Assembly: GCA_964536205.1 (NCBI GenBank)
Contig: CAZHVT010000004.1
Coordinates: 17,960 to 81,959, forward strand
Direction: 5' to 3'
From: an uncultured Gammaproteobacteria bacterium
GTDB taxonomy: Bacteria; Patescibacteriota; Patescibacteriia; Magasanikbacterales; GCA-002688135
DNA: 64,000 nucleotides
Below are positions 2,416-60,586 of this stretch, piece by piece. Each line of letters begins with the position of its first letter. Within the stretch, counting starts at the first letter, position 1. Both the position numbers and the translations under genes were made by a program. The notes beneath the pieces are model-generated. The model did not search any database and was not told the DNA's origin. It saw nothing but the letters and a program-made list of their open reading frames with translations.

Positions 2416-4497
2416 ATGCCCCGTCAATTCCCATTTGAAAAAGTACGAAACATCGGAATCATCGCTCATATCGATGCCGGAAAAACAACGGTAACGGAGC
2501 GCATTTTGTTTTACACAGGAAAGAAGCACAAAATCGGTGAGGTGCATGAAGGGGAGGCGACAATGGATTGGATGGAACAAGAACAAGAGCGAGGAATCAC
2601 AATTACATCTGCTGCAACAACAGCATTCTGGAATGATCATCGCTTAAACATTATTGATACGCCAGGACACATCGACTTTACTGTTGAGGTAAAGCGTTCA
2701 TTGCGAGTTCTTGATGGAGCGGTGGTGATTTTTGATGGTGTTGCCGGAGTAGAGCCACAATCAGAAACAAACTGGCATTACGCTGATGAATTTAGCGTGC
2801 CTCGCATTTGTTTCATTAATAAATTAGACAGAACGGGTGCGGATTTTTATGCAGACGTACAATCAATTCACGATCGTCTCACAAAAAATGCAGTACCGAT
2901 TCAGCTTCCAATCGGCGCAGAAGACGGATTTTTAGGCGTGATTGATTTGATTGAACAAAAATCTCATATCTTCAAAGATGATCTTGGAAAAGATGTTGAA
3001 GTTGGTGATATTCCGGAGGACATGAAAGAAAAAGCAGCAAAATATCGTGCAGAATTGATTGAAAAGATTGTAGAAAATGACGAAGATTTGATGAATGCAT
3101 ATTTGGAAGGAAATGAAATTCCAGTCGCAGATTTGAAACGCGTATTGCGAAAGGCTGTGGTTGCATTTGAGATTGTGCCTGTTTTATGTGGATCTGCATT
3201 GAAAAATAAGGGTGTCCAAATTTTGCTTGATGCGGTAGTAGATTATCTTCCATCACCACTAGATGTGCCCGCAACAAAAGGAAAAGATATTCATGATGAT
3301 GAAAAAGAAATCGAATGTCCTCCAGACGACTCAAAACCGTTTGCAGCACTCGCATTTAAAGTTGCGGTTGACCCATTCGTAGGACGATTAACTTTTTTCC
3401 GCGTCTATTCCGGAACACTCAAACAGGGGACAACAATTTTAAATAATACAACAGGGAAGAAAGAGCGTGTTGGTCGTATCGTTCGTATGCATGCAAATTC
3501 TCGTGAGGATGTGGATGAAGCATACGCAGGAGATATTGCAGCAGCTATCGGATTGAAAAATACATTTACTGGGCACACATTGACTGATGTAGATCATCCA
3601 TTAATGCTCGAGAAATTCACATTCCCAGAGCCAGTGATCTCCATGGCAGTTGAACCAAAAACAAAATCAGATCAAGAAAAAATGGGCGTAGCACTACAGA
3701 AACTCGCTGAAGAAGATCCAACATTCCGCGTCTATACAAATGAAGACACCATGCAAACGATTATTTGTGGGATGGGAGAACTTCATTTGGAAGTGATTGT
3801 TGATCGCATGCGCCGTGAATTTAAAGTTGAGGTTGGTGTTGGTCAGCCAGAAGTTGCATACAAAGAAACCATTACCAAAACAGCAGAAAATGTTGCCATC
3901 AAATACGTTAAGCAAACTGGTGGGCGCGGACAATACGGTCATGTTGTTATCAATATTGAACCACAAGAACGCGGTGTCGGATTTGAATTTATTGATAAAA
4001 TTAAAGGTGGGGTTATTCCAAAAGAATATATTCCAGCAGTTGAAAAGGGAATTAGTGGTGCACTTGATCGTGGAATTTTAGCCGGCTATCCTGTCATTGA
4101 TGTGAAAGCAACATTAGTTGACGGAAGTTATCATGATGTGGATTCATCTGAAGTCGCCTTTAAGATCGCAGGTTCTATGGCGATGCAAGCAGCTGCAAAA
4201 CAAGCAGGCTTGGCACTACTTGAACCAGTCATGAAAGTAGAGGTTTTGACACCAGAGCAATTCATGGGTGATGTGATCGGAAATTTAAACTCAAAACGTG
4301 GAACAGTTGATGAAATGTTAGAGCGAAAAGGTGTTCGAGTAGTTCGTGCACAAGTCCCTCTTTCAGAAATGTTTGGATATGCAACTGAATTGCGAAGTAT
4401 GACACAAGGACGTGCATCATACTCAATGGAGTTTGGTTCATACGAACAAGCACCACAAAATGTCGCAGCAGCAGTGATGGAGGGAAAAGCTAAGTAG
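2416..4497 (+). CDS. fusA: elongation factor G
   Basis: 693 aa. G-domain motifs [17 protein letters not shown] and NKLD, in str-operon order. Confidence 0.97.
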
Positions 4498-4512
4498 ACT
4501 AACAGCGAACAT

Positions 4513-4836
4513 ATGGAATGGCAGAGAATTATAGACCTAGTGAAAAAAACAGGGGAGCGATGTGTCGTAATCGATCCAGATCATGATGAACCTGTGGTCG
4601 TTATGCCGTTATCGGATTATGAATTTTTAGCAGATCGTGATGAAGAAAACGAATTTGATTTTGGACTAGATGACATGCCCAGTGACATCCCATTTGAGCC
4701 AGAAGCAGATTGGATCCCAGATTTTGCACAAGAAGAAGAACCTGTTTTGGAAGTAATTGAAGAACATATTCATGAAGAAACAGAGCCACTTGCTACAGAA
4801 GAATCATGGTATATCGAACCAATTGAGGGCGAATAA
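4513..4836 (+). CDS. hypothetical small acidic protein
   Basis: 107-aa ORF 16 nt after fusA, extremely D/E-rich in its C-terminal half. No recognised domain. Confidence 0.45.
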   Translation: MEWQRIIDLVKKTGERCVVIDPDHDEPVVVMPLSDYEFLADRDEENEFDFGLDDMPSDIPFEPEADWIPDFAQEEEPVLEVIEEHIHEETEPLATEESWYIEPIEGE

Positions 4837-4847
4837 AGGATGTGGAC

Positions 4848-4872
4848 AAAATCGGGATAAATAACCGATTTT
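4848..4872 (+). terminator. terminator-like hairpin
   Basis: AAAATCGG-gataaataa-CCGATTTT. Confidence 0.4.
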
Positions 4873-4886
4873 AACCCCAAAAAGAC

Positions 4887-4915
4887 TTGCCAACATAATA
4901 AGGCTATGTTACAAT
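4887..4915 (+). promoter_or_regulatory. sigma70-type promoter upstream of tuf
   Basis: TTGCCA, 17 nt, TACAAT. A DnaA-box-like TTATCCACT lies just downstream. Confidence 0.45.
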
Positions 4916-4990
4916 TGCGACGTCATTTATCCACTAGAAACCAATTTCGTGGGATGACGTTAAATTTAAACTAAAATAAGATAAATATAT

Positions 4991-6181
4991 ATGGCAGAGC
5001 AATTCGACCGATCAAAGACACACGTCAACGTCGGTACAATCGGTCACGTTGACCACGGTAAAACCACAACAACTGCTGCACTTTTAGCAGTATTACGTTC
5101 TGGAGGAAAAACAGCACAAGACAAATCAATGGCTGAAATTGACGCAGCTCCAGAAGAGCGCGAACGTGGAATTACTATCAACACAGCTCACGTTGAATAT
5201 GAGACAGATGGACGTCATTACGCTCATATCGACTGTCCAGGTCACGCTGACTACATCAAAAACATGATTACAGGTGCTGCTCAAATGGACGGCGCAATTT
5301 TGGTAGTTTCAGCAACGGATGGTCCAATGCCACAAACACGTGAGCACATTTTGCTTGCTCGACAAGTTGGTGTGCCACATATCGTTGTATTTTTGAACAA
5401 AGTAGACCAAGTTGATGATTCAGAATTGCTCGATCTCGTAGAAGAAGAAATTCGTGATTTGTTGAAGAAATACGAATTCCCTGGAGACGAAACTCCTATC
5501 ATCCGAGGATCAGCTTTAAAAGCTCTTGAAAATCCAGAAGATGAAGCTGCAACAAAACCAATTCATGATTTGCTCGCAGCACTTGATTCATACATTCCAG
5601 ATCCAGTTCGTGACACAGACAAGGATTTCTTGATGCCTGTTGAAGATATCTTCTCAATTGAAGGTCGTGGAACAGTTGCAACAGGAAGAATCGAACGTGG
5701 AACAGTCAACATTAACGATGAAGTAGAAATTGTTGGATTCGGAGATGTGCAAAAAACAGTTATCACGGGAATCGAAATGTTTAACAAACAACTCGATAAG
5801 GGAATGGCTGGTGACAATGCTGGATTGCTCATGCGTGGAACTAAGAAAGATGAAATCGAACGTGGAATGGTTTTGGCAAAGGCTGGAACAGTTACTCCAC
5901 ACACAGAATTCGATGTTGAAATCTATGCTCTTACAAAAGAAGAGGGTGGACGACACAAACCATTCATGACTGGATACAAACCACAGTTCTACATCCGAAC
6001 AACTGACGTGACTGGAGAAATCAAGTTGAAAGAAGGTACAGAAATGGTTATGCCTGGGGATACATTCCAAGGTGCAGTAACATTGATTTCACCAATCGCA
6101 TTGGAAGAAAAGCAAAAATTCAGCATCCGTGAAGGTGGAAAAACAGTTGGTGCTGGTATCGTATTGAAGATTAATAAATAA
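4991..6181 (+). CDS. tuf: elongation factor Tu
   Basis: 396 aa with [17 protein letters not shown] and NKVD motifs. Confidence 0.97.
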
Positions 6182-6187
6182 TGAACT

Positions 6188-6207
6188 CCCTGCGAAAGCA
6201 GGGTTTT
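6188..6207 (+). terminator. hairpin with GAAA tetraloop plus TTTT between tuf and rpsJ; possible terminator or attenuator
   Basis: CCCTGC-gaaa-GCAGGG-TTTT. Confidence 0.45.
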
Positions 6208-6217
6208 CTCGTGTCTC

Positions 6218-6562
6218 ATGTCTGCAAAAGAGGATAACAAAAAACCGGAAGGCGAGGTTTCAAATCGCATCCGCATCAAAATCAGAGCATTCGATCACAA
6301 AATTGTTGATGAATCAGTTAAGAATATTGTGGAAACTGCAGAGCGATCAGGCGCTAAGGTCGTAGGGCCAGTGCCGTTGCCAACAGAAAAAAGCAAGATG
6401 ACTGTGAATCGTTCAACATTTGTACACAAAGATGCACGAGAACAGTACGAAGTTCGTACGCACAAGCGATTGATGGATATCATCAATCCAACTCCAAAAA
6501 CAGTAGATAACTTGATGAATTTGAATCTACCGGCAGGAGTAAACATCGAAATTAAAATGTGA
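6218..6562 (+). CDS. rpsJ: 30S ribosomal protein S10
   Basis: [40 protein letters not shown]... with a short N-terminal extension. Ends with a TGA stop. Confidence 0.9.
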
Positions 6563-6745
6563 GATATCGCTACACGATATTTCATCACCCGACAGGGTGA
6601 TCTAATAATTAACAATAAGATGGGCGCCGGATCTCAGCAGATACAGTCTTCTGAGATCCGGAACTCATCCGGAAACTGATCCAAGATAAAGGTATAAGAT
6701 CCAACAGAACCTTCTTAATAAAATAATTGTTTGTAGATACAAATT

Positions 6746-6828
6746 CGTTTTGGCTGCAAAGCGCTCAAAGCTCCTCGACGATACTTCGGTATCGCCTCAT
6801 CGCTTATTCACGCTTTTCGCCGAAAACG
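6746..6828 (+). ncRNA. candidate structured RNA element, copy A, in the rpsJ-rplC spacer
   Basis: About 85-nt hairpin. Outer stem CGTTTTGGCTGCAAAGCG / CGCTTTTCGCCGAAAACG encloses the core CTCAAAGCTCCTCGACGATAC-TTCG-GTATCGCCTCATCGCTTATTCACG. Homologous to 14161-14249. Confidence 0.4.
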
Positions 6829-6987
6829 ATATTCATATCTACTAAACACTATTTTATCAAAAAGATTCATGGAAAACATACCCACATCACGGAATCAGAG
6901 GAGTATAAAGAAGATACATGCGGATTCCCGAATGGAATTCGTACACAATTCGACATATTAAGGCATGCATAGCATGTCATGTTGAGT

Positions 6988-7024
6988 GGTATCCTTTATA
7001 TTCATTAGAGATACCTCTTTTTTT
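6988..7024 (+). terminator. terminator-like hairpin plus T7 run abutting the rplC start codon; candidate attenuator
   Basis: GGTATC-ctttatattcatta-GATACC-TCTTTTTTT, followed directly by ATG at 7025. Confidence 0.4.
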
Positions 7025-7843
7025 ATGAAATGTATCATTGGAAGAAAATTGGAAATGACTCGAATTTTTGACGAGCAGGGGACAGCGACTCCCGTGACTG
7101 TTATTGCTGCACCAAAACAAGTGGTTACGCAGGTTCGTGAACGTGCAATTCAAGTGGGGTGTGAATCTGTAAAAAAGAACGTCAAAAAAGCACAACAAGG
7201 TCATTTGAAAGGATTGCCAATGATGAAAGTCATGCGCGATTTCAAAATTACCGACGATCAATTATTTGAGCGTGGTGATTCTTGGGATGCTGGCGTATTT
7301 GAAAAAGGGGATAAGGTAACCGTAACAGGTCATGCAAAAGGACGTGGATTTCAAGGTGTGGTGAAACGATGGGGATTCCATGGTTCACCAGCATCTCACG
7401 GACACAAAGATCAGTTGCGTATGCCTGGTTCAATTGCATCACGAACACAAGGTCCTGTGGCAAAAGGAAAGAAGATGGGTGGTCACATGGGAACAAATCG
7501 TGTGAGTGTTCATAATATTGCAGTCGTAGATATCAATCCTGAAGCTGGATTATTGTACTTGAAGGGAGCAATTCCTGGAGCACGCGGTTCAGTGGTATTG
7601 GTTAAAGGATTGGGTGAAATGGTTGTCGAGAAAACGAAAAAACAAGAAAGCGAAAAAACAGAAGAAACACCAGCAGAACCAAAAGCTGAGGTTGTTGAGG
7701 AAGTAAAAGAAGCGGTTGTAGAAGAGTCAAAAGCTGAAGAGAAAGTAGAATCATCTGAAGAGAAAAAACCAGAAGCAGTTGAAGAAAAACAAGAAGTTGC
7801 AGAAGAACCAAAAGCCGAGGAGGCGGCAGAAGAGACTAAATAA
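7025..7843 (+). CDS. rplC: 50S ribosomal protein L3 with about 75-aa E/K/A/V-rich C-terminal extension
   Basis: Begins MKCIIGRKLEMTRIFDEQG and contains the L3 core. Low-complexity tail EKTKKQESEKTEE...AEETK. The track ORF starts at 6986 but the internal Met matches the L3 N-terminus. Confidence 0.9.
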   Translation: MKCIIGRKLEMTRIFDEQGTATPVTVIAAPKQVVTQVRERAIQVGCESVKKNVKKAQQGHLKGLPMMKVMRDFKITDDQLFERGDSWDAGVFEKGDKVTVTGHAKGRGFQGVVKRWGFHGSPASHGHKDQLRMPGSIASRTQGPVAKGKKMGGHMGTNRVSVHNIAVVDINPEAGLLYLKGAIPGARGSVVLVKGLGEMVVEKTKKQESEKTEETPAEPKAEVVEEVKEAVVEESKAEEKVESSEEKKPEAVEEKQEVAEEPKAEEAAEETK

Positions 7844-7881
7844 AATCATAGAACGTAGAACATAGAACGTACAACATTAAT

Positions 7882-8511
7882 ATGAAAGCACCTCTGTACA
7901 ACATCAAAGGAGAAAAACAGCGGGAAGTCGAACTTCCAGCAGCTGTCTTTGGTGTAGAAACAGAAGCTTCAATTATTCAAGAAGTAGTAGTAGCTTTTGA
8001 GGCAAATCAACGTCAGCAATTCGCACATACAAAAGATCGTGGAGATGTTTCAGGTGGTGGTAAAAAACCATGGAAGCAAAAAGGAACAGGACGTGCGCGT
8101 CATGGATCTATCCGGTCACCTTTGTGGGTTGGTGGTGGTGTGACATTTGGTCCACGCAATAACAGAAATTTCAAAAAGAAAGTAAACAAAAAAGTTGCAC
8201 GAAAAGCACTCAAAATGGTGTTGTCAGATCGTGCATCACATGGAGTCGTATCTTTGATTGATACCTTTGATTTGAAAGAAGGTAAAACAAAAACATGCGC
8301 ACAGCTCGTGAAAGCGGTTGGTGCTGAAAAAGCAAAACGCGTGTTGTTTGTTACAAATGGTGTCAACAAAGATGTGGTTCGATGTGTAAATAATATCCCT
8401 AACGCAGAAGTTACTTCTGTGGCGGACCTTAATGCATACACTGCGATTAAGCATAAAGCATTGGTCATGGAGGAAGGAACAATCGAAGCATTAACCACAC
8501 GATTGAAATAA
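7882..8511 (+). CDS. rplD: 50S ribosomal protein L4
   Basis: 209 aa, canonical S10-operon position. Confidence 0.95.
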   Translation: MKAPLYNIKGEKQREVELPAAVFGVETEASIIQEVVVAFEANQRQQFAHTKDRGDVSGGGKKPWKQKGTGRARHGSIRSPLWVGGGVTFGPRNNRNFKKKVNKKVARKALKMVLSDRASHGVVSLIDTFDLKEGKTKTCAQLVKAVGAEKAKRVLFVTNGVNKDVVRCVNNIPNAEVTSVADLNAYTAIKHKALVMEEGTIEALTTRLK

Positions 8512-8515
8512 TTGT

Positions 8516-9025
8516 ATGTCATTCTTAGGAAAATGGTTTAAAAAGGATAAGCAAGAACGTCTGGATAAACAGACAGATGTTGATGTTGATGCAGAACAAA
8601 AAATCGAAAAATCGAAAAAACCAGAAATCGATAGAACTGAGATAAAATCTGAAAAGAAAAAGGAAGATGCAAAAAAAGCAGGTACTAAGAAAGATGAGGA
8701 AGAAAAAGTAGATGCGCCAATGATGACACTGAAAACGCCAGACTACATGTCGAATATCATTAAGCGATTGCATGTAACAGAAAAGGCTGCAGATGCTGAA
8801 TCACAATCAGTTTACACATTTGTAGTAGACATGAAGGCAACAAAGAATGAAATTGCTAAAGAGATTAAACGTACATATAACGTGACACCTGAAAAAATTC
8901 GTGTCATGAATATGCGTGGGAAACGAGTACGATGGGGTCGAAATCGTGGGCAGCGTTCAGGTTGGAGAAAAGCTATGGTTGCTTTGAAAAAGGGTGAAAA
9001 GATTAATCTTCACGAAGGAACTTAA
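8516..9025 (+). CDS. rplW: 50S ribosomal protein L23 with about 68-aa K/E-rich N-terminal extension; alternative start at 8720
   Basis: C-terminal 100 aa ([23 protein letters not shown]...) are L23. Upstream part is low-complexity KE-rich. Confidence 0.9.
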
Positions 9026-9030
9026 TTCGT

Positions 9031-9870
9031 ATGGCGATTAAACGATATAAACCAACAACTCCCGGAAGACGCAAATCTAGTGTGAACACCACAAAAGATT
9101 TGACGCAGAAACGACCGGAAAAAAGTTTGCGTGTTATCAAAAAGCGAAAAGCTGGACGATCACGTGGGCGAATTGCGGTACGTCATCGTGGTGGGGGAGC
9201 AAAACGGTTTATTCGAATTATCGATTTCAAACGAACAAAGTTTGATGTACCTGCAACAGTTACTGCGGTAGAATACGATCCAAATCGTGGAGCACGCATC
9301 ATGTTGTTGCTATACAAAGATGGTGAAAAACGATATTCATTGGCGCCACAAAAAATCAAAGAAGGTGATACGGTTATTTCATCTGAAAAAGAAGTTGATT
9401 TGAAACCAGGAAACAGAACAAAGTTGAAAAACATTCCGGTAGGTTTGGATGTGCATGATATCGAATTGCAGCCGGGCGCAGGATCACGCATGGTTCGCGG
9501 CGCTGGAGGTTCAGCTCGATTGCGTGCATTGGAAGGAAAATACGCATTGATCAAATTGCCATCAGGAGAAATTCGAAAGGTATTGGCAGAATGTAGTGCG
9601 ACACTCGGCGCTGTTTCAAATCCAGATCACAACTTGGTTCGATACGGAAAAGCTGGCCGAACACGTCACCGAGGTTTCCGACCAACAGTTCGTGGTAAGG
9701 TTATGAATCCATGTGATCACCCTCACGGTGGTGGTGAAGGTTCTACCTCAATTGGTATGACTCATCCAAAAACACCATGGGGAAAGCACGCATTGGGTGT
9801 CAGAACACGAAAGTCGAAAAAGTTCAGCAACAAATTTATTGTAAAACGTCGTTACCATAAAGGAAGGTAA
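9031..9870 (+). CDS. rplB: 50S ribosomal protein L2
   Basis: 279 aa with the GRNxxGxITxRHRGGG-like motif ([11 protein letters not shown]) and C-terminal HPHGGGEG. Confidence 0.97.
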
Positions 9871-9883
9871 ACAAAGCGATTAG

Positions 9884-9941
9884 CGTCTAGCGTTTAGCGT
9901 TTAGAAAATTTCTAATCGCTAAACGCTGTACGCTATACGCT
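9884..9941. repeat. word-built imperfect palindrome, family 1 (AGCGTTTAGCG words), copy a
   Basis: AGCGATTAGCGTCTAGCGTTTAGCGTTTAGAAA / TTTCTAATCGCTAAACGCTGTACGCTATACGCT. Lies between rplB and rpsS. Confidence 0.7.
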
Positions 9942-9949
9942 CAAATATT

Positions 9950-10234
9950 ATGTCTAGAAGTCTTAAAAAAGGACCATACGTTGACGAGAAACTGATGAAA
10001 AAAATCGGGAAGTTAAAGCAAGGTGATTCTACGGTCGTGAAAACCTGGGCTCGTCATTCAACAATCGCTCCGCAAATGGTGGGATTTACGATTGGTGTAC
10101 ACAATGGAAAGGATCATATTCCTGTGTATGTTGTTGAAAATATGGTTGGACATAAATTAGGTGAATTTGCTCCAACACGTAAATTTGTTCGTCATGGTGG
10201 TAAATTACAAAAGACACAAGAGAAGAAAAAATAG
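9950..10234 (+). CDS. rpsS: 30S ribosomal protein S19
   Basis: 94 aa, [12 protein letters not shown]... Confidence 0.95.
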
Positions 10235-10237
10235 AAT

Positions 10238-10705
10238 ATGGATATTAAAGCACACGCAAAATTTGTTCGAATCTCACCACGCAAAGTTCGCTTGGTAACA
10301 GGTTTAGTGAAAGGCATGACAGTGCCGCATGCGTTGGTGCAATTAAAAATGACAACAAAACGATCAGCTCCAGTAGTCAAAAAGTTGATCGAATCAGCAA
10401 TGGCAAATGCTCGCCATAATTTCAAGGTAGACCCTGAAGCGCTTGTGATTTCAGAAGCGCTGGTGAACCAAGGGCCGACCATGAAAAGATGGCGACCGCG
10501 TGCCATGGGGCGTGCAGCGAAAATTCGCAAACGCACATCACATATCAGCATCACACTTTCAGATATGAAGGGAGATGCAAAACCAGTTGAAAAAACTGAA
10601 GCGGTAAAGGAAGAAAAACCAAAAGTCGAAGCAAAAAAGGATGCAGCAGAAGCTCCAAAGAAACCAGAAAAGAAGCAGGAAGAGGCAAAGGCCGCAAAAA
10701 AATAA
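10238..10705 (+). CDS. rplV: 50S ribosomal protein L22 with K/E/A-rich C-terminal extension
   Basis: N-terminal 110 aa match L22. The tail is EAVKEEKPKVEAKKDAAEAPKKPEKKQEEAKAAKK. Confidence 0.93.
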   Translation: MDIKAHAKFVRISPRKVRLVTGLVKGMTVPHALVQLKMTTKRSAPVVKKLIESAMANARHNFKVDPEALVISEALVNQGPTMKRWRPRAMGRAAKIRKRTSHISITLSDMKGDAKPVEKTEAVKEEKPKVEAKKDAAEAPKKPEKKQEEAKAAKK

Positions 10706-10735
10706 TTCTTGATTCATAATTCATAATTCCTACAC

Positions 10736-11383
10736 ATGGGTCACAAAGTACATCCAAAAATTTTCCGCATGCAGGTCATCTACAAATGGCCATCACGTTG
10801 GTTTGCGAAATTGAATAAAGAAGAGTATCGAAAAAATCTTCGACAAGATATTGAGATGCGCGAATTTATTCGTAAGCAATGTAAAGATGCGGGCGTGGAT
10901 GAAATTAAGGTAGAACGTGACTTATCAGGAGAGGTAACCATCACATTGACAGTCGCAAAGCCAGGGCTTATTATTGGTCGCGGTGGATCGGGTGTTGAGG
11001 ATCTCACAACAAAACTTGAAAAGAAGATTTTGAAGGGAAAGAATAAGATTCGCATGAATGTGGTTGAAATCAAGAAACCAAATCTTTCAGCTCGAGTTGT
11101 TGGAATGAACATGGCTGCAGATCTTGAAAAACGAATGCCATATCGTCGTGTATTGAAACAGGCACTTGATCGAGTTGATAAAGCAGGAGCAAAAGGTGTG
11201 CGCGTTATGGTTGCAGGTCGATTAAATGGTGCAGATATTGCTCGCCGCGAAACATTATCACGTGGAAAAATTCCTTTACAGAATCTTCGTGCAGATATTG
11301 ATTATGCGCGTGTGAATGCTCACACCATTTACGGAGTGATTGGAATTAAGGTATGGATTTATAAAGGTGAGGTGTTCGAATAA
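10736..11383 (+). CDS. rpsC: 30S ribosomal protein S3
   Basis: Begins [11 protein letters not shown] and contains a KH domain. Confidence 0.95.
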
Positions 11384-11388
11384 GTTAT

Positions 11389-11814
11389 ATGTTGATCCCA
11401 AAGAAAGTAAAACACAGAAAGTGGCATAAAGGACGTCGTCGCAACAAAGGTGTTGCACAAACAAAGACGACGGTTGATTTTGGTGCATATGGATTGAAAT
11501 CACAGTCACACGCTTGGGTAACATCCCGACAAATTGAGGCTGCACGTCGTGCAATTACACGTCACATCAAACGTGGTGGAAAGCTCTGGATTCGTATTTT
11601 CCCGGACAAACCAATTACCAAAAAAGGTAATGAAATGCCTATGGGAAAAGGAAAGGGAGCTGTTGATCACTATGTGGCAATTGTAAAACCAGGATGTATT
11701 ATTTTCGAATTGGATGGTGTTGAGAAAGATCTAGCGAGACGAGCATTCGAATTGGCAGCACACAAATTACCAGTCAAAACTTTGTTTGTTGAGAAAAATG
11801 AAATCAGAATTTAA
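11389..11814 (+). CDS. rplP: 50S ribosomal protein L16
   Basis: Begins [21 protein letters not shown]. Confidence 0.95.
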
Positions 11815-11819
11815 GTTAT

Positions 11820-12005
11820 ATGGCTAAGAAAGAAAAATTCTCAGTGCATGACACAAAAGCACTCAAACAAATGTTGAATGATAAACAAGTAGAACTTGCA
11901 GGATTAAGATTTCAAGCATCAAACAAAGCATTGAGACAGGTAAACAAAATTAGTATTGTTCGACGCGACATTGCTCGCATCAGAACAGCACTAGCACAAA
12001 AATAA
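11820..12005 (+). CDS. rpmC: 50S ribosomal protein L29
   Basis: 61 aa, operon position. Confidence 0.88.
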   Translation: MAKKEKFSVHDTKALKQMLNDKQVELAGLRFQASNKALRQVNKISIVRRDIARIRTALAQK

Positions 12006-12010
12006 TTAGT

Positions 12011-12283
12011 ATGGATAAAGGCACAACAACGCAAAAAGATGTCATCAAGCGAGTATTTTCTGGCGTGGTGGTAAAAAAGACAGCCGATAAAACGGTGCGT
12101 GTTAAAGTTGCGCGAACAGTTGTGCACAGTAAATACAAAAAACGATATACAAGACATGAAAATTATCTCGTCCATGATCCAAAAAATCAGTTTGAGGTAG
12201 GTCAAAAAGTTTCGTTTGAACAATGTCGTCCCATTTCAAAAATGAAACGATGGCGAGTATTGTACGAATCAGCAAAGAAATAA
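12011..12283 (+). CDS. rpsQ: 30S ribosomal protein S17
   Basis: 90 aa, S17 family. Confidence 0.9.
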
Positions 12284-12284
12284 T

Positions 12285-12656
12285 ATGTTACAACAAGAGT
12301 CAAAATTGTTATCAGCAGATAATAGTGGCGCAAAGCGGCTCAAGGTTATTCGTGTTCTTGGAGGATATAAAAAACGCTATGCGAGAATCGGCGATATCAT
12401 TACATGTTCAGTAAAAGAAGCAACTCCACGCGGACAAGTAAAAAAGGGTGAGGTGGTACATGTGGTATTGGTACGAAGCAAAAAAGAGACAGTACGTCCT
12501 GATGGAACAGCAGTACGATTTTCAGAAAACGCCGGGGTAATTATCGATAAGAAAAATAAGGAACCGCGAGCAACACGTATTTTCGGTCCAGTCGCTCGTG
12601 AATTACGCGCAATGGGATATAACAAAATTATCTCACTCGCACCTGAAGTACTCTAA
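12285..12656 (+). CDS. rplN: 50S ribosomal protein L14
   Basis: 123 aa, [17 protein letters not shown]... Confidence 0.95.
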
Positions 12657-12657
12657 A

Positions 12658-12727
12658 AGCGATTAGCGATTAGCGTCTAGCGTTTAGAAAAAATTCTAAT
12701 CGCTAGACGCTGTACGCTAAACGCTAC
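12658..12727. repeat. word-built imperfect palindrome, family 1, copy b
   Basis: AGCGATTAGCGATTAGCGTCTAGCGTTTAGAAAAAATTCTAATCGCTAGACGCTGTACGCTAAACGCT, nearly identical to copy a. Lies between rplN and rplX. Confidence 0.7.
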
Positions 12728-12733
12728 AAAATT

Positions 12734-12979
12734 ATGGCTAAACAACACGTAACATCTGGAGATAACGTCAAAGTGCTTGCCGGTAAAGACAAAGGTAAAA
12801 CCGGTAAGATTCTTCAGGTATTTCCAAAAAAGAATCGCGTTGTTGTTGAAGGTGTAAATGTCATGAAAAAACATTTGAAATCACGCGGAAATGAAAAAGG
12901 ACAAGTAATTGAACTATCAGCGCCTATCCATATTTCAAATGTGAAGAAAGTAGCTGAAGAAAAACCAGCTAAGAAATAA
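12734..12979 (+). CDS. rplX: 50S ribosomal protein L24
   Basis: 81 aa, KOW motif. Confidence 0.9.
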
Positions 12980-12980
12980 T

Positions 12981-13532
12981 ATGTCAGCACTCAAAGAATT
13001 GTACAACACAGCAGTACTGCCGAAACTCAAGCAAGAACTTGGGTGTGACAACGTGCATGCATGTCCAAAACTTGAAAAAGTTGTTGTTCATGTAGGCTTT
13101 GGAAAACATGCAAAAGATGGTGAGTATATCAAAAATGTAAAAAAGACATTGCGAAACATTACAGGACAAGAACCTGTAGATGCACCCGCAAAGAAATCAA
13201 TTTCAAACTTTAAGGTTCGTGAAGGAAATATTATTGGCGCAAAAGTTACGCTACGTGGGAAATTGATGTATGACTTCGTGGAACGTATTATCAATGTGAC
13301 ACTGCCGCGAGTTCCGGATTTCCGTGGATTGAAAGTAAAAAATATTGATAGTAATGGAAACATGAATTTCGGATTTAAAGACCAGATCGCATTTCCAGAA
13401 AGTTCGCCAGAAGATATTCATAATCCGCATGGTGTACAAGTTACAGTTGTTACGACAGCAGATAATCACAAAGATGGGTTTATGTTGTTGGACACACTCG
13501 GATTTCCATTTGCAAAGGAAGAAACTAAATAA
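12981..13532 (+). CDS. rplE: 50S ribosomal protein L5
   Basis: 183 aa, L5 family. Confidence 0.95.
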
Positions 13533-13537
13533 CTCAT

Positions 13538-13723
13538 ATGGCTACAAAAGCTCAGATAATCAAATCTCAAAAGAAGCAAAAGTTCTCAACGCGTGGTGTG
13601 AACAGATGTTGGCGTTGTGGACGAAAACGCGGATACATGAGAAAATTTGATCTCTGCAGAATTTGTTTCCGTGAATTAGCTAACGCCGGACAAATTCCGG
13701 GAGTACGTAAATCATCTTGGTAA
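13538..13723 (+). CDS. rpsN: 30S ribosomal protein S14, zinc-binding short form (type Z)
   Basis: 61 aa with CWRCGRKRG...CRICFRE (a CxxC...CxxC zinc motif). Confidence 0.9.
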
Positions 13724-13727
13724 ATAT

Positions 13728-14120
13728 ATGATGACAGATCCAATCGCAGACATGTTGACCAGAATTAGAAACGCATGTATGGTACGCAAACCATCAGTGT
13801 CTTTGCCGTACTCAAAATTGAAATTTGCGATTGCACAGAAAATGGCTGAAGCAGGATATGTGAAAGAGGTTGTAAAGGAAGATGGTGCTGGAAAACCAAC
13901 CATGACCATTTCACTCAAATACAAAGGCAAGCTTCCACATATTACAGAAATCACACGTGTAAGTAAGCCCGGATTGCGTATTTACGTGAAATCAGACGCA
14001 ATTCCTAAAGTGAAAGGTGGATACGGAACAGCATTTTTATCAACATCACAAGGTTTAATGACAGACGAGCAGGCGCGCGAAAAGGGCGTCGGAGGAGAGC
14101 TTGTATGCACACTATATTAA
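13728..14120 (+). CDS. rpsH: 30S ribosomal protein S8
   Basis: 130 aa, MMTDPIADMLTRIRNA... Confidence 0.95.
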   Translation: MMTDPIADMLTRIRNACMVRKPSVSLPYSKLKFAIAQKMAEAGYVKEVVKEDGAGKPTMTISLKYKGKLPHITEITRVSKPGLRIYVKSDAIPKVKGGYGTAFLSTSQGLMTDEQAREKGVGGELVCTLY

Positions 14121-14160
14121 GGAGGATCATTCAAAATAAGTACTGATTGAATATATGACA

Positions 14161-14249
14161 TCCACTTCTGCTAAAAAGGGTTCAAAGCTCGTCAACGATG
14201 CGTCCGGCATCGCTTCCTCGCTTGTTCACCCTTTTTATCTAGAAGTGGA
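14161..14249 (+). ncRNA. candidate structured RNA element, copy B, in the rpsH-rplF spacer
   Basis: Outer stem TCCACTTCTGCTAAAAAGGG / CCCTTTTTATCTAGAAGTGGA enclosing the core TTCAAAGCTCGTCAACGATGC-GTCCG-GCATCGCTTCCTCGCTTGTTCAC. About 80% identical to the copy A core. Confidence 0.4.
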
Positions 14250-14288
14250 GGCCATCTATCCTAATCAGTATTATTCCGAATAATCCAT

Positions 14289-14834
14289 ATGTCACGTATC
14301 GGACGAAAACCCATTACGATTCCGGAGGGCGTCAAAGTCGCAATTAGCGATGGGTATATTGTGGTTAACGGACCAAAAGGTGAATTGAAACAAACAACAA
14401 ATCCTGCGGTAAATATTGATATTAAAGATAATGTAATTGGAGTAACAGTGAATCAACCTGAAGATAAGAAGGAGCGAGCATTGTGGGGGTTGTATGGATC
14501 ACTTGTCGCCAACATGATTACAGGAGTCACAGAGGGTTACGAAAAACAGTTGGAAGTTCGTGGTGTTGGATTTAAAAGTAAAGTAGATGGAAAGAAATTG
14601 GTTTTGGATGTCGGATATTCTCATCAAGTAAATTACGAGATTCCAGAAGGCATTGAAATCAAGGCAGAAAAAAACATTTTAACAATTACAGGAATTGATA
14701 AACAACAAGTTGGATTTGTCGCAAGTCGTATTCGGTCAGTTCGAAAACCTGAACCATATAAGGGGAAAGGAATTCGATATGTCGACGAACAAGTCCAAAT
14801 GAAAGCTGGTAAAGCAGCAAAGGCTGCAGGATAA
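14289..14834 (+). CDS. rplF: 50S ribosomal protein L6
   Basis: 181 aa, MSRIGRKPITIPEGVKV... Confidence 0.95.
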   Translation: MSRIGRKPITIPEGVKVAISDGYIVVNGPKGELKQTTNPAVNIDIKDNVIGVTVNQPEDKKERALWGLYGSLVANMITGVTEGYEKQLEVRGVGFKSKVDGKKLVLDVGYSHQVNYEIPEGIEIKAEKNILTITGIDKQQVGFVASRIRSVRKPEPYKGKGIRYVDEQVQMKAGKAAKAAG

Positions 14835-14837
14835 CAT

Positions 14838-15215
14838 ATGAAAACAGCACACAAAACATCAAATAAAGTTGTTGCGAAAAAAAGACGTCAAAAGCGCGTA
14901 CGCGCACAGATTTCTGGTACCGCAACTCGACCGCGTTTGGCTGTTTTCAGATCAAACACTGCAATACGCGCACAACTTATCGATGACGTAAAAGGCACAA
15001 CATTAGTTTCTGTTGATTCAAAAAAAATGGATGAAAAAGACGCAGGCGAGAGAAAAGCAAAAGTCGCACGAGCATTTAATGTGGGACGTGAAGTTGCAAA
15101 ACAAGCTCAAGCAAAAAAAATAGATACAATTGTATTTGATCGTGCAGGATATGCATATCATGGCCAAGTCAAAGCGGTCGCCGATGGCGCACGCGAAGGC
15201 GGCCTTCAATTTTAG
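14838..15215 (+). CDS. rplR: 50S ribosomal protein L18
   Basis: 125 aa, RPRLAVFRSN motif region. Confidence 0.9.
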   Translation: MKTAHKTSNKVVAKKRRQKRVRAQISGTATRPRLAVFRSNTAIRAQLIDDVKGTTLVSVDSKKMDEKDAGERKAKVARAFNVGREVAKQAQAKKIDTIVFDRAGYAYHGQVKAVADGAREGGLQF

Positions 15216-15223
15216 GAACTTAT

Positions 15224-15760
15224 ATGCCAGAAGCAGCAACAGTACAAAAAAAGCAGCAAGGAAATCGAGGAAGAAATCAACGTCCTCGTGGTAACAGACG
15301 ACCACGTCGTGAAGAGCGTGAATTCGAACAACGCGTAGTAGATCTTGCGCGTGTCACGCGTGTGACATCTGGTGGAAAACGAATGAGCTTTCGTGCGACT
15401 GTTGTGGTTGGTGATAAAAAAGGAAGAGTAGGTTACGGAATCGCAAAAGGAAAAGATGTGCAAGCAGCAATTCAAAAAGCTGTAGCAAAAGGTGAAAAAT
15501 CCGTCATTCGTGTTCCCATGAAAAAGAATACGATCCCGCACGCAATCAACAAAAAATTCAAAGCAGCAAAAGTTTTATTGAAACCAGCTCCAGATGGTAC
15601 AGGAGTTATTGCAGGTGGTGCGGTTCGTATCGTATTAGAATTATCAGGAATTAAAGATATTGTTGGAAAGATGCTTGGATCAACAAGTAAACACAACAAT
15701 GTACATGCAACCATCGAAGCACTAAAAGACTTGCAGTTGGCTGCAGCAAAAAAAGCATAA
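15224..15760 (+). CDS. rpsE: 30S ribosomal protein S5 with RG-rich N-terminal extension
   Basis: 178 aa. The S5 dsRBD plus C-terminal domain follow a QQGNRGRNQRPRGNRRPRREE head. Confidence 0.95.
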   Translation: MPEAATVQKKQQGNRGRNQRPRGNRRPRREEREFEQRVVDLARVTRVTSGGKRMSFRATVVVGDKKGRVGYGIAKGKDVQAAIQKAVAKGEKSVIRVPMKKNTIPHAINKKFKAAKVLLKPAPDGTGVIAGGAVRIVLELSGIKDIVGKMLGSTSKHNNVHATIEALKDLQLAAAKKA

Positions 15761-15764
15761 ATAT

Positions 15765-16190
15765 ATGTCGTTATCTCTCAACACCCTCACCAAAAAAGGT
15801 AAGAATGCAAAACCTCGTCGTGGACGCGGTAATGCTTCTGGTGCAGGAACATATTCAGGAAGGGGAATGAAAGGGCAAAAATCTCGCTCAGGTTCTTCTG
15901 GTTTGAAAGAAATGGCATTGCGGCGCGTAGTCCAGCGAATTCCAAAAAAACGTGGATTTAAGCCAGTTCGAACAAAACCAGAAGGTGTAACATTGGCAAC
16001 TATCGAGAAACATTTTGAAGAAAATGCTATAATCACTCCTAAGGTTCTACGAAAAGCTGGATACATCAAGACTCCGCAAGTACGCATCATAAACACAGGT
16101 ACACTCAAAAAGAAATTTTCATTTAAATCATGCAATGTAACTGAAGGCGCACGCGCAGCTATTGAAGCGGCTGGTGGAACTATTGCATAG
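15765..16190 (+). CDS. rplO: 50S ribosomal protein L15. Follows rpsE directly, so no L30 gene
   Basis: 141 aa with a G/R-rich N-terminus typical of L15. Only 4 nt separate rpsE and rplO. Confidence 0.9.
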   Translation: MSLSLNTLTKKGKNAKPRRGRGNASGAGTYSGRGMKGQKSRSGSSGLKEMALRRVVQRIPKKRGFKPVRTKPEGVTLATIEKHFEENAIITPKVLRKAGYIKTPQVRIINTGTLKKKFSFKSCNVTEGARAAIEAAGGTIA

Positions 16191-16306
16191 AAGATGCGTA
16201 AATCGTAAATCGTAAAGCGTAATGAGGGAAAAGGTATCGCTGCACGCGATCTATTAATATGTCGCCCTTGGCGACTCCGCTACCCGCATTACGAGTTACT
16301 AATAGT

Positions 16307-17581
16307 ATGATCGAGCAACTAAAGAAAATCTGGAAGATCAAAGAATTGCGTAACAGCATTCTTTTTGTCATTGGTACACTTATAATTTTCCGCATTGTTG
16401 CACATATTCCATTACCGGGAGTAGACGTAGCAAGTTTGCGTCAATTCTTCAGCAACAATCAATTACTCGGATTGTTGAATATTTTCTCCGGTGGAACACT
16501 TCAGAATTTCTCCGTTATTGTGATGGGTGTTGGTCCATTTATTACCGCATCCATTATTCTGCAATTGCTGACAATGGTAATTCCAAAACTAGAAGAACTT
16601 TCAAAAGAAGGAGAATACGGACAAAAGAAAATCAACCAATATACACGATTGCTCACCGTCCCACTTTCATTTCTACAAGGATACGGAACAATCCAACTCA
16701 TCAATCAGTCAGCACACAACATCTTCCCAGACCTCACAGGATTCATGATGTTAAAAACACTTCTGACAGTTACAGCTGGAACAATATTCCTCATGTGGCT
16801 CGGTGAGTTAATTTCAGAAAAAAACATCGGAAACGGAATCTCATTCCTCATCTTCGCAGGTATTATTGCTGGATTGCCACAATTCGTACAACAAGCTGCC
16901 GTAACATTTACTGAGGCAGACTTCATCACATACTTACTCTACGCAATCCTAACTGTCGGAACGGTCGCTGGTGTGGTCTACATTACGGAAGCGCAGCGAA
17001 ACATTCCTGTGGTGTATGCACGTCATGTACGTGGTTCACGAATGGGCGGAGGATCACGATCATTTCTGCCATTGCGTTTAAATATGGGTGGAATGATCCC
17101 CATCATTTTCGCAATTTCTGTTGTGCTATTCCCATCACTAATCGCACAATTTTTCATCAATGCACAAACCCCTTGGGTCGCAAACTTCGCGGCCAACACT
17201 ATCGCATTCTTTGAAAACCAATTCTACTACGGATTATTCTATTTTGCGCTCGTGATGATTTTCACATTCTTCTACGCATCTGTCATTTTCCATCCAGAAA
17301 AAATCGCAGAGAATTTACAAAAACAAGGGGGATTCATTCCAGGTATTCGACCAGGAAAACACACACAAGAATACATCAACACCATCAAAAACCGCATCCT
17401 ACTTTTCGGAGCACTTTTCTTGTCAGTGATCGCAGTTTTCCCATTAGTACTCCAAGCATTCACAAACACAACAGTCCTCACGATCGGTGGTGTAAGTATT
17501 CTGATCGTCGTGGCTGTTGTCATCGACATCATCAAAAAAATCGAAGCTCAAATACAAATGAGAGCATACGATCAAGTCTAA
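16307..17581 (+). CDS. secY: preprotein translocase subunit SecY; alternative upstream start at 16259
   Basis: 10-TM protein. MIEQLKKIWKIKELRNSILFVIGTL matches the SecY N-terminus. Confidence 0.93.
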   Translation: MIEQLKKIWKIKELRNSILFVIGTLIIFRIVAHIPLPGVDVASLRQFFSNNQLLGLLNIFSGGTLQNFSVIVMGVGPFITASIILQLLTMVIPKLEELSKEGEYGQKKINQYTRLLTVPLSFLQGYGTIQLINQSAHNIFPDLTGFMMLKTLLTVTAGTIFLMWLGELISEKNIGNGISFLIFAGIIAGLPQFVQQAAVTFTEADFITYLLYAILTVGTVAGVVYITEAQRNIPVVYARHVRGSRMGGGSRSFLPLRLNMGGMIPIIFAISVVLFPSLIAQFFINAQTPWVANFAANTIAFFENQFYYGLFYFALVMIFTFFYASVIFHPEKIAENLQKQGGFIPGIRPGKHTQEYINTIKNRILLFGALFLSVIAVFPLVLQAFTNTTVLTIGGVSILIVVAVVIDIIKKIEAQIQMRAYDQV

Positions 17582-37124: not shown

Positions 37125-37210
37125 AAGCGAAGAATCTAAAAAACAAGAAATCAAAAAAGCAGCAGAGCCACTTTCGATTTCTAGCTTTCTAGTTTTCTGG
37201 TTTTTTCGAA
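37125..37210. repeat. word-built imperfect palindrome (AAATC/GATTT, CTAG words) immediately downstream of relA
   Basis: CGAAGAATCTAAAAAACAAGAAATCAAAAAAGC...GATTTCTAGCTTTCTAGTTTTCTGGTTTTTTCG. Confidence 0.55.
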
Positions 37211-40997: not shown

Positions 40998-41003
40998 AAT
41001 TTT

Positions 41004-41090
41004 TCGTAACGAGTAAAGCGTAATGCGTAAAGAGGGATTTCGCCTTCGGCGATCGCTTTACGCTTTGCGCATTACGCTTTACGAACTACC
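41004..41090. repeat. word-built palindrome, family 2 (CGTAAAGCG words around GGGATTTCGCCTTCGGCGATCGC), copy a
   Basis: Right arm overlaps the last 5 codons of the rimK-like gene. Near-reverse-complement of copy b at 44250-44313. Confidence 0.65.
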
Positions 41091-43482: not shown

Positions 43483-43487
43483 ACGCA

Positions 43488-43517
43488 GCCCTGAACCTAT
43501 GTGGTTCGGGGCTTTTT
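43488..43517 (+). terminator. terminator of the same hairpin family as the island modules
   Basis: GCCCTGAACC-tatgt-GGTTCGGGGC-TTTTT. Compare CCCGAACC-aacgc-GGTTCGGGG at 30992. Confidence 0.55.
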
Positions 43518-43542
43518 AATTCTCTTTAACAAGCCCAAAACC

Positions 43543-43585
43543 TATTATACTACAAGCCCAAGGGGCTTGTAGTATAATAGGATCT
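43543..43585. repeat. perfect 19-bp palindrome CCTATTATACTACAAGCCC / GGGCTTGTAGTATAATAGG. A third (direct) copy at 43705-43725 overlaps the pth stop
   Basis: The two arms are separated by 3 nt. The copy at 43705 (CCTATTATACAACAAGCCC) is inverted relative to the right arm and lies about 120 nt away, a MITE-like geometry. Confidence 0.55.
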
Positions 43586-43709
43586 TTGCCAAAATTTCCA
43601 TATTGAAGCTCAATTCTACAAAAAGTTTTTTGCCTTAGCTACTGCTAGGGCTGCAAAACTTATTTGAAGAATTGATCATTCAATCTGAAAATTTGTGACT
43701 GAAAACCTA

Positions 43710-44249: not shown

Positions 44250-44313
44250 GTAATGCGTAAAGCGATCGCCAAAGGCGAAATCCCGCATTACGCTTTACGA
44301 ATTACGCATTACT
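44250..44313. repeat. word-built palindrome, family 2, copy b
   Basis: GTAATGCGTAAAGCGATCGCCAAAGGCGAAATCCCGCATTACGCTTTACGAATTACGCATTAC. Confidence 0.65.
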
Positions 44314-45722: not shown

Positions 45723-45822
45723 TCGTAAAGCGTAAAGCGTAAAATGTGTCGCGCAGTGACGATCTATAAATCGTCGCTTCAGCGACCAATTTCCCGAGTT
45801 ACGAGTTACGCTTTACGAGTTA
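45723..45822. repeat. composite element C2: outer CGTAAAGCG-word stem enclosing the core ATAAATCGTCGCTTCAGCGAC
   Basis: TCGTAAAGCGTAAAGCGTAAAA...core...TTACGAGTTACGCTTTACGAGTTA. Between the LCP gene 3' end and the der start. Core homologous to C1. Confidence 0.6.
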
Positions 45823-60582: not shown

Positions 60583-60586
60583 GAAA

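Follow-up and report, generated by a model that had tools for sequence, protein, structure and literature searches.

A candidate leader RNA between rpsJ and rplC in a Parcubacteria clade and the hairpin element inserted into it

Why should two neighbouring ribosomal protein genes be held apart by several hundred nucleotides of strongly folding sequence? The question is raised by a stretch of 64,000 nucleotides (nt) of contig CAZHVT010000004.1, hereafter the window, in which rpsJ (ribosomal protein S10) is followed by rplC (ribosomal protein L3) only after a spacer of 462 nt (6563-7024). An earlier note on this DNA had given the spacer as 424 nt, which is incorrect, and had called such a gap unusual, which it is: in 147 loci fetched from genomes and metagenomes the median S10-L3 gap is 68 nt and just nine gaps measure at least 250 nt. 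The spacer RNA has a minimum free energy (MFE) of -155.6 kcal/mol, as compared to -93.0 +/- 6.2 kcal/mol for 100 dinucleotide shuffles (z = -10.1).

Here we propose, with a probability of about 0.45 and judging from sequence comparison, that a lineage-specific leader RNA is encoded between rpsJ and rplC and regulates, in cis, the ribosomal protein cluster headed by rplC. The features of the spacer fit a conditional attenuator with a ribosomal protein as its most likely effector. The earlier note had suggested regulated attenuation or antitermination at a terminator directly before the L3 gene, and this is partly supported: the terminator-like end and an RNA upstream of it are conserved, and an alternative pairing is predicted. 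The spacer is composite, because part of it (copy A, below) is an insertion into the conserved RNA. Patescibacteria have tiny genomes and few recognisable regulators. If the proposal is true, the conserved RNA switch ahead of the genes from L3 to SecY would offer one of few visible handles on the balance of ribosome production; should the terminator be constitutive, what is left is a decorated spacer at an operon boundary of the ordinary kind.

The conserved RNA in the rpsJ-rplC spacer

A leader of about 290 nt was found in 11 spacers from eight lineages of one Parcubacteria clade, down to an L3 identity of 52%, the distant homologs being obtained via contigs that encode progressively more divergent L3 proteins. 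Homologous spacers of 248-471 nt occur in all relatives with an L3 identity of approximately 52-94%, and that of locus L173 is a further one, truncated at the contig end. Loci L001 (L3 identity 94%, spacer 328 nt), L002 (about 75%, 277 nt) and L162 (about 75%, 248 nt) form, with the window, what we call the window's subclade. The further homologs are L161 (62%), L175 (57%), L173 (56%), L168/L169 (55%), L170 and L171 (54%) and L174 (52%). Two contigs from two other samples, L166 and L167, carry a spacer that is 100% identical to that of the window, copy A included. Their rplC is called as two open reading frames (ORFs) of 93 and 161 amino acids (L166 1017-1822; L167 548-1353), which suggests a frameshift or an assembly error as compared to the intact gene of the window.

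The elements of the spacer are, in window coordinates:

6563 to 6601, plus strand: two small hairpins adjoining the rpsJ stop codon, GATATCG-ctaca-CGATAT (6563-6580) and ATCACCC-gaca-GGGTGAT (6584-6601)
6619 to 6669, plus strand: P1, a long hairpin, GATGGG-CG-CCGGATCTCAG ... CTGAGATCCGG-AA-CTCATC
6676 to 6898, plus strand: P2/P3 domain, from folds and covariation; P2 pairs CTGATCC (6676-6682) with GGAATCAG (6891-6898), P3 pairs GGTAT (6691-6695) with ATACC (6878-6882), and P3 flanks a conserved internal loop of AAGATC (6696-6701) and GAAAAC (6872-6877)
6702 to 6871, no strand assigned: copy A, a hairpin element of about 170 nt in the apical loop of P3, missing in relatives
6899 to 6917, plus strand: GAGG/AGGAG box and 5' strand of the candidate antiterminator, GAGUAUAAAG-AA-GAUAC
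6919 to 6943, plus strand: hairpin H6, TGCGGATTCC-cgaat-GGAATTCGTA
6948 to 6987, plus strand: hairpin H7, with core GGCATGC-ata-GCATGTC (6962-6978) and a lower stem of 6948-6956 with 6979-6987 that includes the conserved GTTGAGT
6984 to 7024, plus strand: terminator-like hairpin T, GAG-T-GGTATC, a loop of 16 nt, GATACC-TC, then a run of seven T (7018-7024) that touches the rplC ATG

The earlier note had listed four elements in the gap. All four are present, the hairpins at coordinates shifted by 1-3 nt, but they do not make up one device. The hairpin of seven base pairs (bp), which had been placed one position off, and its neighbour at the rpsJ stop lack conservation in the clade and form no part of the core: L001 has two hairpins of other sequence here, and L002, L162, L170 and L171 have none. 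What had been described, at shifted coordinates, as a perfect hairpin of 11 bp (arms CCGGATCTCAG, 6627-6637, and CTGAGATCCGG, 6651-6661) is the inner part of the longer helix P1. Directly 3' of P1 the motif CCGGAA is repeated (6670-6675). Copy A is an independent insertion. The comparative alignment of spacers that had been recommended revealed a conserved structured domain upstream of T.

Covariation was evaluated with two alignments. The strand-by-strand alignment was made by hand with the pairing in mind and is thus biased toward the structure, although the helices had been predicted independently per sequence; it gave 93-100% canonical pairs and compensatory columns in P1, P2, P3, H6, H7 and T. 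RNAalifold, applied to an unedited MAFFT alignment of five sequences, predicted P1, P2, P3, H7 and T, with 68 pairs of which 28 are compensatory. By strand alignment, P1 has 19 columns with 93% canonical pairs and six compensatory columns (five sequences). The P3 pairs are all canonical, with compensation in three of five columns, and P2a is compensatory in 5/5. The exchanges in P3 are G-C for A-U and U-A for C-G, and the third position also shows G-C once L174 is added, as read directly from the sequences. From one lineage to the next, both H6 and H7 differ completely in sequence. The stem of H6 is wholly different and still paired in L001, L002, L162, L161 and L168, all ten columns being compensatory with 100% canonical pairs; H7 is compensatory in all seven columns. 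As to the strand, seven of the 11 homologs have the better fold on the plus strand, by a margin of 10-25 kcal/mol, all outside the window's subclade (L161, L170, L171, L173, L174, L175) except L168, and for the window leader without its insert the values are -102.2 for the plus and -90.0 for the minus strand.

On the sequences compared, the P2/P3 domain is the most conserved part of the leader and a candidate sensor. Its internal loop, UAAGAUC / GAAAACAU, is nearly invariant among the homologs, with slight variants in L173 and L174. A regular-expression search of about 2.2 Mb of fetched loci and the window found TAAGATC...GAAAACAT with complementary flanks only in the S10-L3 spacers of this clade. 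All homologs also share P1 and a P2 helix around P3, and directly after P2 they have a purine box (AGGAG, GAGG or AGGGG), which is followed by a variable hairpin domain. The box was rejected as a working Shine-Dalgarno sequence. Such sequences are nearly absent before ribosomal protein genes here, where the usual context is A/T-rich (...aNNat ATG); of the 26 window genes checked between 2416 and 19250, few have even a partial match and rplC has none.

Comparison to known RNAs returned little. A cmscan of Rfam 15 at the gathering score gave no match in the spacer, only three transfer RNAs (tRNAs) elsewhere in the window, and at E <= 10 for 6400-7200 and E <= 1 for five homologous loci just weak noise resembling microRNA and small nucleolar RNA hairpins. 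ARAGORN detected no tRNA or transfer-messenger RNA in the spacer, and no Patescibacteria ribosomal protein leader or attenuator was found in Rfam 15 or the searchable literature. Two reading frames were rejected as coding. One, of 81 amino acids (6727-6972), lies mostly within copy A, which is missing in relatives. The other is an upstream ORF of 36 codons in the window and L001, from ATG 6918 to TGA 7026-7028, overlapping the rplC ATG; it was discarded because the frame is cut to 12 codons in L002 and L162 and the region shows compensatory changes of the RNA type.

Several homologs carry additions of their own. The apical loop of P1 in L001 holds an extra perfect palindrome, CCTGCCTGCCGGCAGGCAGG (L001 5996-6030), that has no counterpart in the window and is a further sign that the hairpin tips of the leader take insertions. 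L168 has an extra hairpin of about 125 nt (1314-1440) between the rpsJ stop and P1, with a better fold on the minus strand, which may be another inserted element. In L174 a near-consensus sigma-70 promoter, TTGACA-17 nt-TAAAAT (1240-1275), stands in the spacer 5' of the core motif, and this leader may have a promoter of its own.

The terminator-like hairpin and its predicted alternative partner

The earlier note had seen a terminator flush against the L3 start, built on GGTATC and GATACC with a loop of 14 nt, and had named its absence from relatives as evidence to the contrary. The hairpin is present in the window, with arms at 6988-6993 and 7010-7015, a loop of 16 nt rather than 14, GAG/UC pairs that lengthen the stem to 6984-7017, and its T-run touching ATG 7025. 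A hairpin with a U-rich tail before rplC is also kept in all 11 homologous spacers, in eight lineages, at -7.8 to -21.8 kcal/mol. The window, L001, L002 and L162 share GAG-U-GGUAUC...GAUACC-UC followed by U7; L161 has a similar stem followed by U8, L168 has UGGUAUC...GAUACCA followed by U5, and L170 and L171 have CCUUGUAUC...GAUACAAGG with a U-rich tail. The stems of L173, L174 and L175 are unrelated (-8.5 to -21.8 kcal/mol, U-rich tails), and those of L170, L171, L173 and L174 are compact or long, likewise at -8.5 to -21.8 kcal/mol. RNAalifold predicts T, and the outer three of eight stem columns covary (GG/CC versus UU/AA and CC/GG).

What does vary is the position of the hairpin relative to the start codon. 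The stem ends 7 nt before the ATG in the subclade of the window, its U-run touching the start codon, 19-21 nt before it in L161, L168, L173 and L174 (L161 having GAGGA between U-run and ATG), 52 nt in L175 and 69-70 nt in L170 and L171. The flush arrangement is thus a peculiarity of one subclade. Since the distance varies, the hairpin and the U-run act as one unit independent of the start codon, which on these sequences speaks for a terminator and against a signal in translation. In the window the stretch from T to the ATG is too short for a promoter. The only promoter match (6974-7002, 9/12) was rejected, as it is not conserved in L001 or L002; transcription of rplC must therefore pass through T, and the whole cluster downstream of rplC is probably also transcribed through it.

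A search for antiterminator pairings had been suggested in the earlier note, and candidates were found. In the MFE structure of the window, in which T is not formed, GAGUAUAAAG-AA-GAUAC (6901-6917), which begins in the GAGG box, pairs with GUAUC-CUUUAUAUUC (6988-7003), the 3' strand of the candidate antiterminator, formed by the 5' arm and the loop of T. With this pairing H6 and H7 become two arms of a three-way junction, and GAUACCUCUUUUUUUAUG stays unpaired. In 8/8 homologs first analysed the MFE structure likewise has a helix between the segment that follows P2 and either the 5' arm of T or its loop, formed by sequences that differ between lineages. The alternative helix consists of GAGCA-AAAAGA-ACC with GGU-UCUUUU-UGUUC in L001, of GGAGUAC...AAGGA with UCCUU-GUGCUCC in L002 and L162, and of GAUCAUCG with CG-U-AUGAUC in L161; in L173 a helix of 15-16 bp overlaps T by a few nucleotides. 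Compared to a forced terminator fold, the alternative fold is preferred by 8.4 kcal/mol in the window, 9.5 in L001, 9.0 in L002, 7.3 in L162 and 3.1 in L161, and by 1 kcal/mol or less in L168, L170 and L171, where the overlap with T is 3-5 nt. A position-specific pairing test gave a combined p = 0.008, driven by the window. We consider the antiterminator plausible and well developed in the window's subclade, its statistical support being moderate; as far as the folding models go, mutual exclusion of the helix and T is clear only in that subclade.

These elements could work together as follows. By default, the GAGG-box segment would pair with the 5' arm and loop of T, closing the three-way junction around H6 and H7, RNA polymerase would read through, and the rplC start region would be single-stranded. 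A factor bound at the P2/P3 domain and the GAGG-box region would block this pairing, upon which the T hairpin would form and transcription would stop in the U-run. The most plausible factor would be a ribosomal protein in excess whose gene lies downstream, L3 or L4 being guesses by position and precedent. Transcripts that get past T in the window's subclade would still contain its hairpin, 7 nt short of the AUG, and this would hinder initiation too, which would amount to dual control of transcription and translation as in the E. coli L4/S10 system. Copy A, which lies where the tip of P3 tolerates differences in length, is a passenger and does no work in the switch. Conditional Rho-independent terminators are common among autogenous ribosomal protein leaders. 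For Archaeoglobi an L4-assigned leader candidate upstream of rplC has been proposed (PMC7247131).

The inserted hairpin element and the surrounding cluster

Self-comparison of the window showed that 6676-6898 is one long imperfect palindrome and that 6720-6870, within copy A, resembles 14133-14288. Two further copies of the element were recognised:

14121 to 14288, no strand assigned: copy B, of the same family, filling the gap between rpsH (ends 14120) and rplF (ATG 14289)
L001 14563-14733: copy C, between rplF and rplR, found by a covariance model of A and B (59.6 bits, E = 8e-10)

At each of the three sites the element is lacking in the other genome, L001 for copies A and B and the window for copy C. 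Copy A is missing in L001, L002, L161, L162, L168, L170, L171, L174 and L175, in which the tip of P3 measures 4-23 nt; L001 has a short hairpin tip at the site, GGTAT-AAGATC-ttcttcgtaaga-AAAC-ATACC. As an insertion missing in relatives, copy A was rejected as a part of the leader. The rpsH-rplF junction takes 168 nt in the window, where it holds copy B, and 9 and 6 nt in L001 and L002; the rplF-rplR junction takes 171 nt in L001, where it holds copy C, and reads TAA-cat-ATG in the window. Copies B and C sit exactly between stop and start codons. With the covariance model no further copy was found in the 64-kb window or in 56 Patescibacteria loci, and the apex motif had no exact match in viral contigs. 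A supposed third copy in the window (43570-43725, 21 bits) was rejected, as this long hairpin lacks the apex motif.

Copies A and B are approximately 66% identical, and pairing is kept across A, B and C through 23-24 compensatory pairs. The apex follows the pattern GTGAAnAAGCGAnnAnGnGAT...ATCnnnGAnGAGCTTTGA, which on the plus strand of copy A reads TCAAAGCTCnTCnnCGAT-loop-ATCnCnTnnTCGCTTnTTCAC (6765-6811). An assignment of the element to the plus strand, from covariance model scores, was withdrawn, since the minus strand folds better and carries the G-U pairs: its MFE is -79, -84 and -82 kcal/mol for the three copies versus -50, -61 and -48 for the plus strand, a difference of 23-35, and it has 6-10 G-U pairs versus 0-2. 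The minus-strand apex, AAGC-GA-N-GA-[stem-loop]-GA-N-GA-GCUU, consists of two tandem G.A loops parted by a covarying pair. All copies share one orientation, with the stable strand antisense to the ribosomal mRNA, for which an antisense RNA, a single-stranded DNA transposition intermediate or selection for the orientation with the weaker mRNA hairpin may account. The ends of the element are inverted repeats, since the whole element is a hairpin. There is a possible 2-nt CA duplication of the target at site C and none evident at sites A or B.

Families of palindromic repeats of the type of miniature inverted-repeat transposable elements, co-transcribed with genes, include Correia/NEMIS of Neisseria, ERIC of enterobacteria and RPE of Rickettsia. 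Compared to these families, the hairpin copies agree in length (155-185 nt), in forming one long imperfect hairpin, in occupying transcribed intergenic sites and in their presence or absence at orthologous sites. They differ in that only three were seen, in a conserved tandem G.A apex, in a strong strand asymmetry and in having no clear target-site duplication; rather than near-identical, the related copies are about 66% identical and keep their pairing. Hairpin elements exactly between stop and start codons of essential genes are unexpected in streamlined genomes, and the leader family shows a structured RNA that tolerates a 170-nt insertion at a hairpin tip.

The genes and signals around the spacer are, in window coordinates:

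6188 to 6209, plus strand: terminator-like hairpin between tuf and rpsJ, CCCTGC-gaaa-GCAGGG followed by TTTTCT
6218 to 6562, plus strand: rpsJ, ribosomal protein S10, the gene 5' of the spacer (from the ORF list and translation)
7025 to 7843, plus strand: rplC, ribosomal protein L3, the first gene 3' of the spacer (from the ORF, homologs and Pfam PF00297)

The gene order is fusA, a small acidic ORF, tuf, rpsJ, rplC, rplD ... secY, adk, map, the str/S10/spc arrangement of Patescibacteria. The rpsJ orthologs of L162, L166 and L168 match Pfam Ribosomal_S10; the L3 protein begins with MKCIIGRKLEMTRIF, typical of L3, from the ATG at 7025. After rplC follow, without large gaps, rplD, rplW, rplB and the rest of the cluster to secY. 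The tuf-rpsJ gap of 36 nt holds just the one small hairpin, about 9 nt before the rpsJ ATG, with counterparts in L001 and L002. It is the sole plus-strand terminator-like site listed in 4400-16400 by a scan whose loop limit is 3-8 nt, and is a second stop-like signal within a co-directional array of essential genes.

Other observations on the locus concern neighbouring sequences. The small ORF between fusA and tuf (4513-4836) encodes a very acidic product of 107 amino acids and is of no obvious identity. L3 has a long Glu/Lys-rich low-complexity extension at its C-terminus (7620-7843) and L23 a Lys/Glu-rich one at its N-terminus (8516-8730), both proteins being otherwise standard. In two more distant Patescibacteria the S10-L3 gap is 1.1-1.6 kb long (L085 8836-10000; L092 8364-10000) and seems to contain a gene that was inserted in the reverse direction. 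Long hairpins of 7-8-nt periodic repeats (such as AGCGATT/AGCGTCT/AGCGTTT) occupy many gaps of the window, among them rplB-rpsS, rplN-rplX and rplV-rpsC, and several sequence families of them recur across it (9875-9941, 12658-12725, 10702-10731, 16198-16229, 37172-37209, 41003-41089, 44252-44312, 45792-45826, 60059-60147, 60462-60583 and 61620-61658). A gap between convergent genes at 43483-43709 contains a terminator-like hairpin (43484-43513) of a three-copy family, whose other members lie at 30721 and 30986. A second, long hairpin in this gap measures about 120 nt and is unrelated to the family of copies A and B.

Competing readings and known systems

By position and conservation the RNA resembles a ribosomal protein leader: a conserved structured RNA lies directly before ribosomal protein genes, always before rplC, in 11 spacers and eight lineages, and the hairpin with U-run in all 11 would serve as expression platform, a conditional one if the folding models are right. 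Several observations weigh against regulated attenuation. The T of the window directly precedes its U-tract, as in an intrinsic terminator, but it is not compact and stable: by textbook standards it is weak, with a stem of 6+2 bp, a loop of 16 nt and an energy of roughly -8 to -9 kcal/mol, and the terminator scan, with its loop limit, does not list it. The alternative helix has no clear equivalent in L174 and L175, being weak or absent there, and in these two as well as in L168, L170 and L171 both folds are nearly iso-energetic or coexist. In the shuffle tests the p values of single sequences lie mostly at 0.04-0.6. Those for duplex energy are 0.10, 0.02, 0.09, 0.24, <0.001, 0.60, 0.36 and 0.25 in eight sequences; combined with one sequence per lineage they give p = 0.003, and 0.13 without L161. 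RNAalifold misses the antiterminator helices and selects T, because the register of the helix differs between lineages. As to a possible mimicry of ribosomal RNA (rRNA), simple motif searches of E. coli, the one species compared as the fetched loci contained no rRNA of this lineage, found neither exact AAGATC nor GAAAAC in 16S or 23S rRNA. One match with a single mismatch lies at 23S position 2747, in the loop of H97, in a different secondary-structure context; that loop is a uL6 site (PMC9687910).

Alternatively, the spacer could be a constitutive structured intercistronic region. T would then be an operon boundary or a terminator of fixed leakiness, by which the L3 cluster is expressed at a lower level than tuf-rpsJ, and the upstream hairpins would serve mRNA stability or processing (RNase III, barriers to 3'-exonucleases), without sensing of a ligand. 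A hairpin with U-run between rpsJ and rplC is common also in other Patescibacteria that have no leader and lack the core motif, and T could therefore be an ordinary operon-boundary signal. The second terminator-like hairpin between tuf and rpsJ, the strong hairpins in many intergenic gaps of this genome and the weak antiterminator statistics in several lineages point the same way. However, a near-invariant loop with covarying flanks down to 52% L3 identity exceeds what a stability hairpin needs, and a long-range helix that consistently overlaps the T 5' arm, with a preference of 7-9.5 kcal/mol in one subclade, is typical of switches. We consider the constitutive region doubtful, though well worth keeping in mind. 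A small-molecule or ion riboswitch, with the P2/P3 loop as aptamer, T as expression platform and ribosomal protein synthesis tuned to a metabolite such as an alarmone, would account for an aptamer-like conserved core followed by a variable platform with a terminator and a possible antiterminator. The conserved core is nevertheless limited in size, with a single internal loop plus a short purine box, and no known riboswitch family matches at E <= 10. To our knowledge, riboswitches directly before ribosomal protein operons are not an established class. In this they differ from protein-binding leaders (PMC7247131), and we regard a riboswitch as very unlikely.

Equally little speaks for an independent gene for a trans-acting small RNA of about 290-400 nt, with a promoter after rpsJ, T as its terminator and rplC expressed by read-through. 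The RNA does have a terminator at its end, AT-rich -10-like sequences precede P1 in several homologs, and the L174 promoter, TTGACA-17-TAAAAT, lies 5' of the core; a spacer promoter is, however, equally expected for a 5' leader. In L002, L162, L170 and L171, P1 begins 3-12 nt past the rpsJ stop, which leaves no room for an intergenic promoter, the RNA is confined to one locus, always directly before rplC, and T flush against the ATG makes rplC depend on the same transcript. Least of all would we expect an RNA for processive antitermination, comparable to put, EAR or boxA, that lets RNA polymerase read through T and the downstream hairpins of the approximately 12-kb cluster. The position at the head of the cluster and the several strong intercistronic hairpins of a long operon suit such a role, but there is no match to EAR RNA or another Rfam family, no boxA-like sequence is conserved (CUCUUU beside T is missing in L168, L170 and L171), and a terminator at the element's own 3' end departs from the known layout. 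A bolder extension of the leader reading, which we think unlikely, would make it an undescribed Parcubacteria RNA family through which the ribosomal protein superoperon is under feedback control in both transcription and translation. What it senses, by means of the UAAGAUC/GAAAACAU loop and the GAGG box, would be a ribosomal component in free form: L3, L4 or even 30S subunits on the Shine-Dalgarno-like box, in a lineage nearly devoid of such sequences. As a separate part of this reading, copies A, B and C would be a new class of structured element, with its functional strand antisense to mRNA, that in ultra-small genomes specifically colonises the ribosomal cluster, at tolerant RNA loops and at junctions between stop and start codons.

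How, then, does the proposed leader relate to known systems? The E. coli S10 operon leader combines L4-mediated transcription attenuation with translational repression. Like it, the window element is a structured leader heading the L3-L4-L23-L2... block, with a terminator hairpin and U-run shortly before the first regulated gene and, by analogy, a potential for joint transcriptional and translational control. Unlike it, and as the earlier note had pointed out, the element lies downstream of rpsJ, so that S10 is outside the controlled block; it is also about 290 nt long, with a three-way junction platform, and has no detectable homology to an Rfam family. With the platforms of riboswitches, T-boxes and protein-binding leaders it shares a sensor-like domain, a variable platform and a long-range helix that uses the T 5' arm. 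It departs from them in that the sensor matches no known aptamer and the overlap is 3-5 nt or absent in distant homologs. From the L4 leader candidate of Archaeoglobi (Eckert & Weinberg 2020, PMC7247131), which is archaeal and unrelated in sequence or structure, with no cmscan match in the window or its homologs, it differs in ending in a Rho-independent-type terminator; both stand directly upstream of rplC-rplD-rplW-rplB, with the ligand suggested by precedent. Taken as a leader, the element is a new family within a known kind, the leaders and attenuators of ribosomal protein operons.

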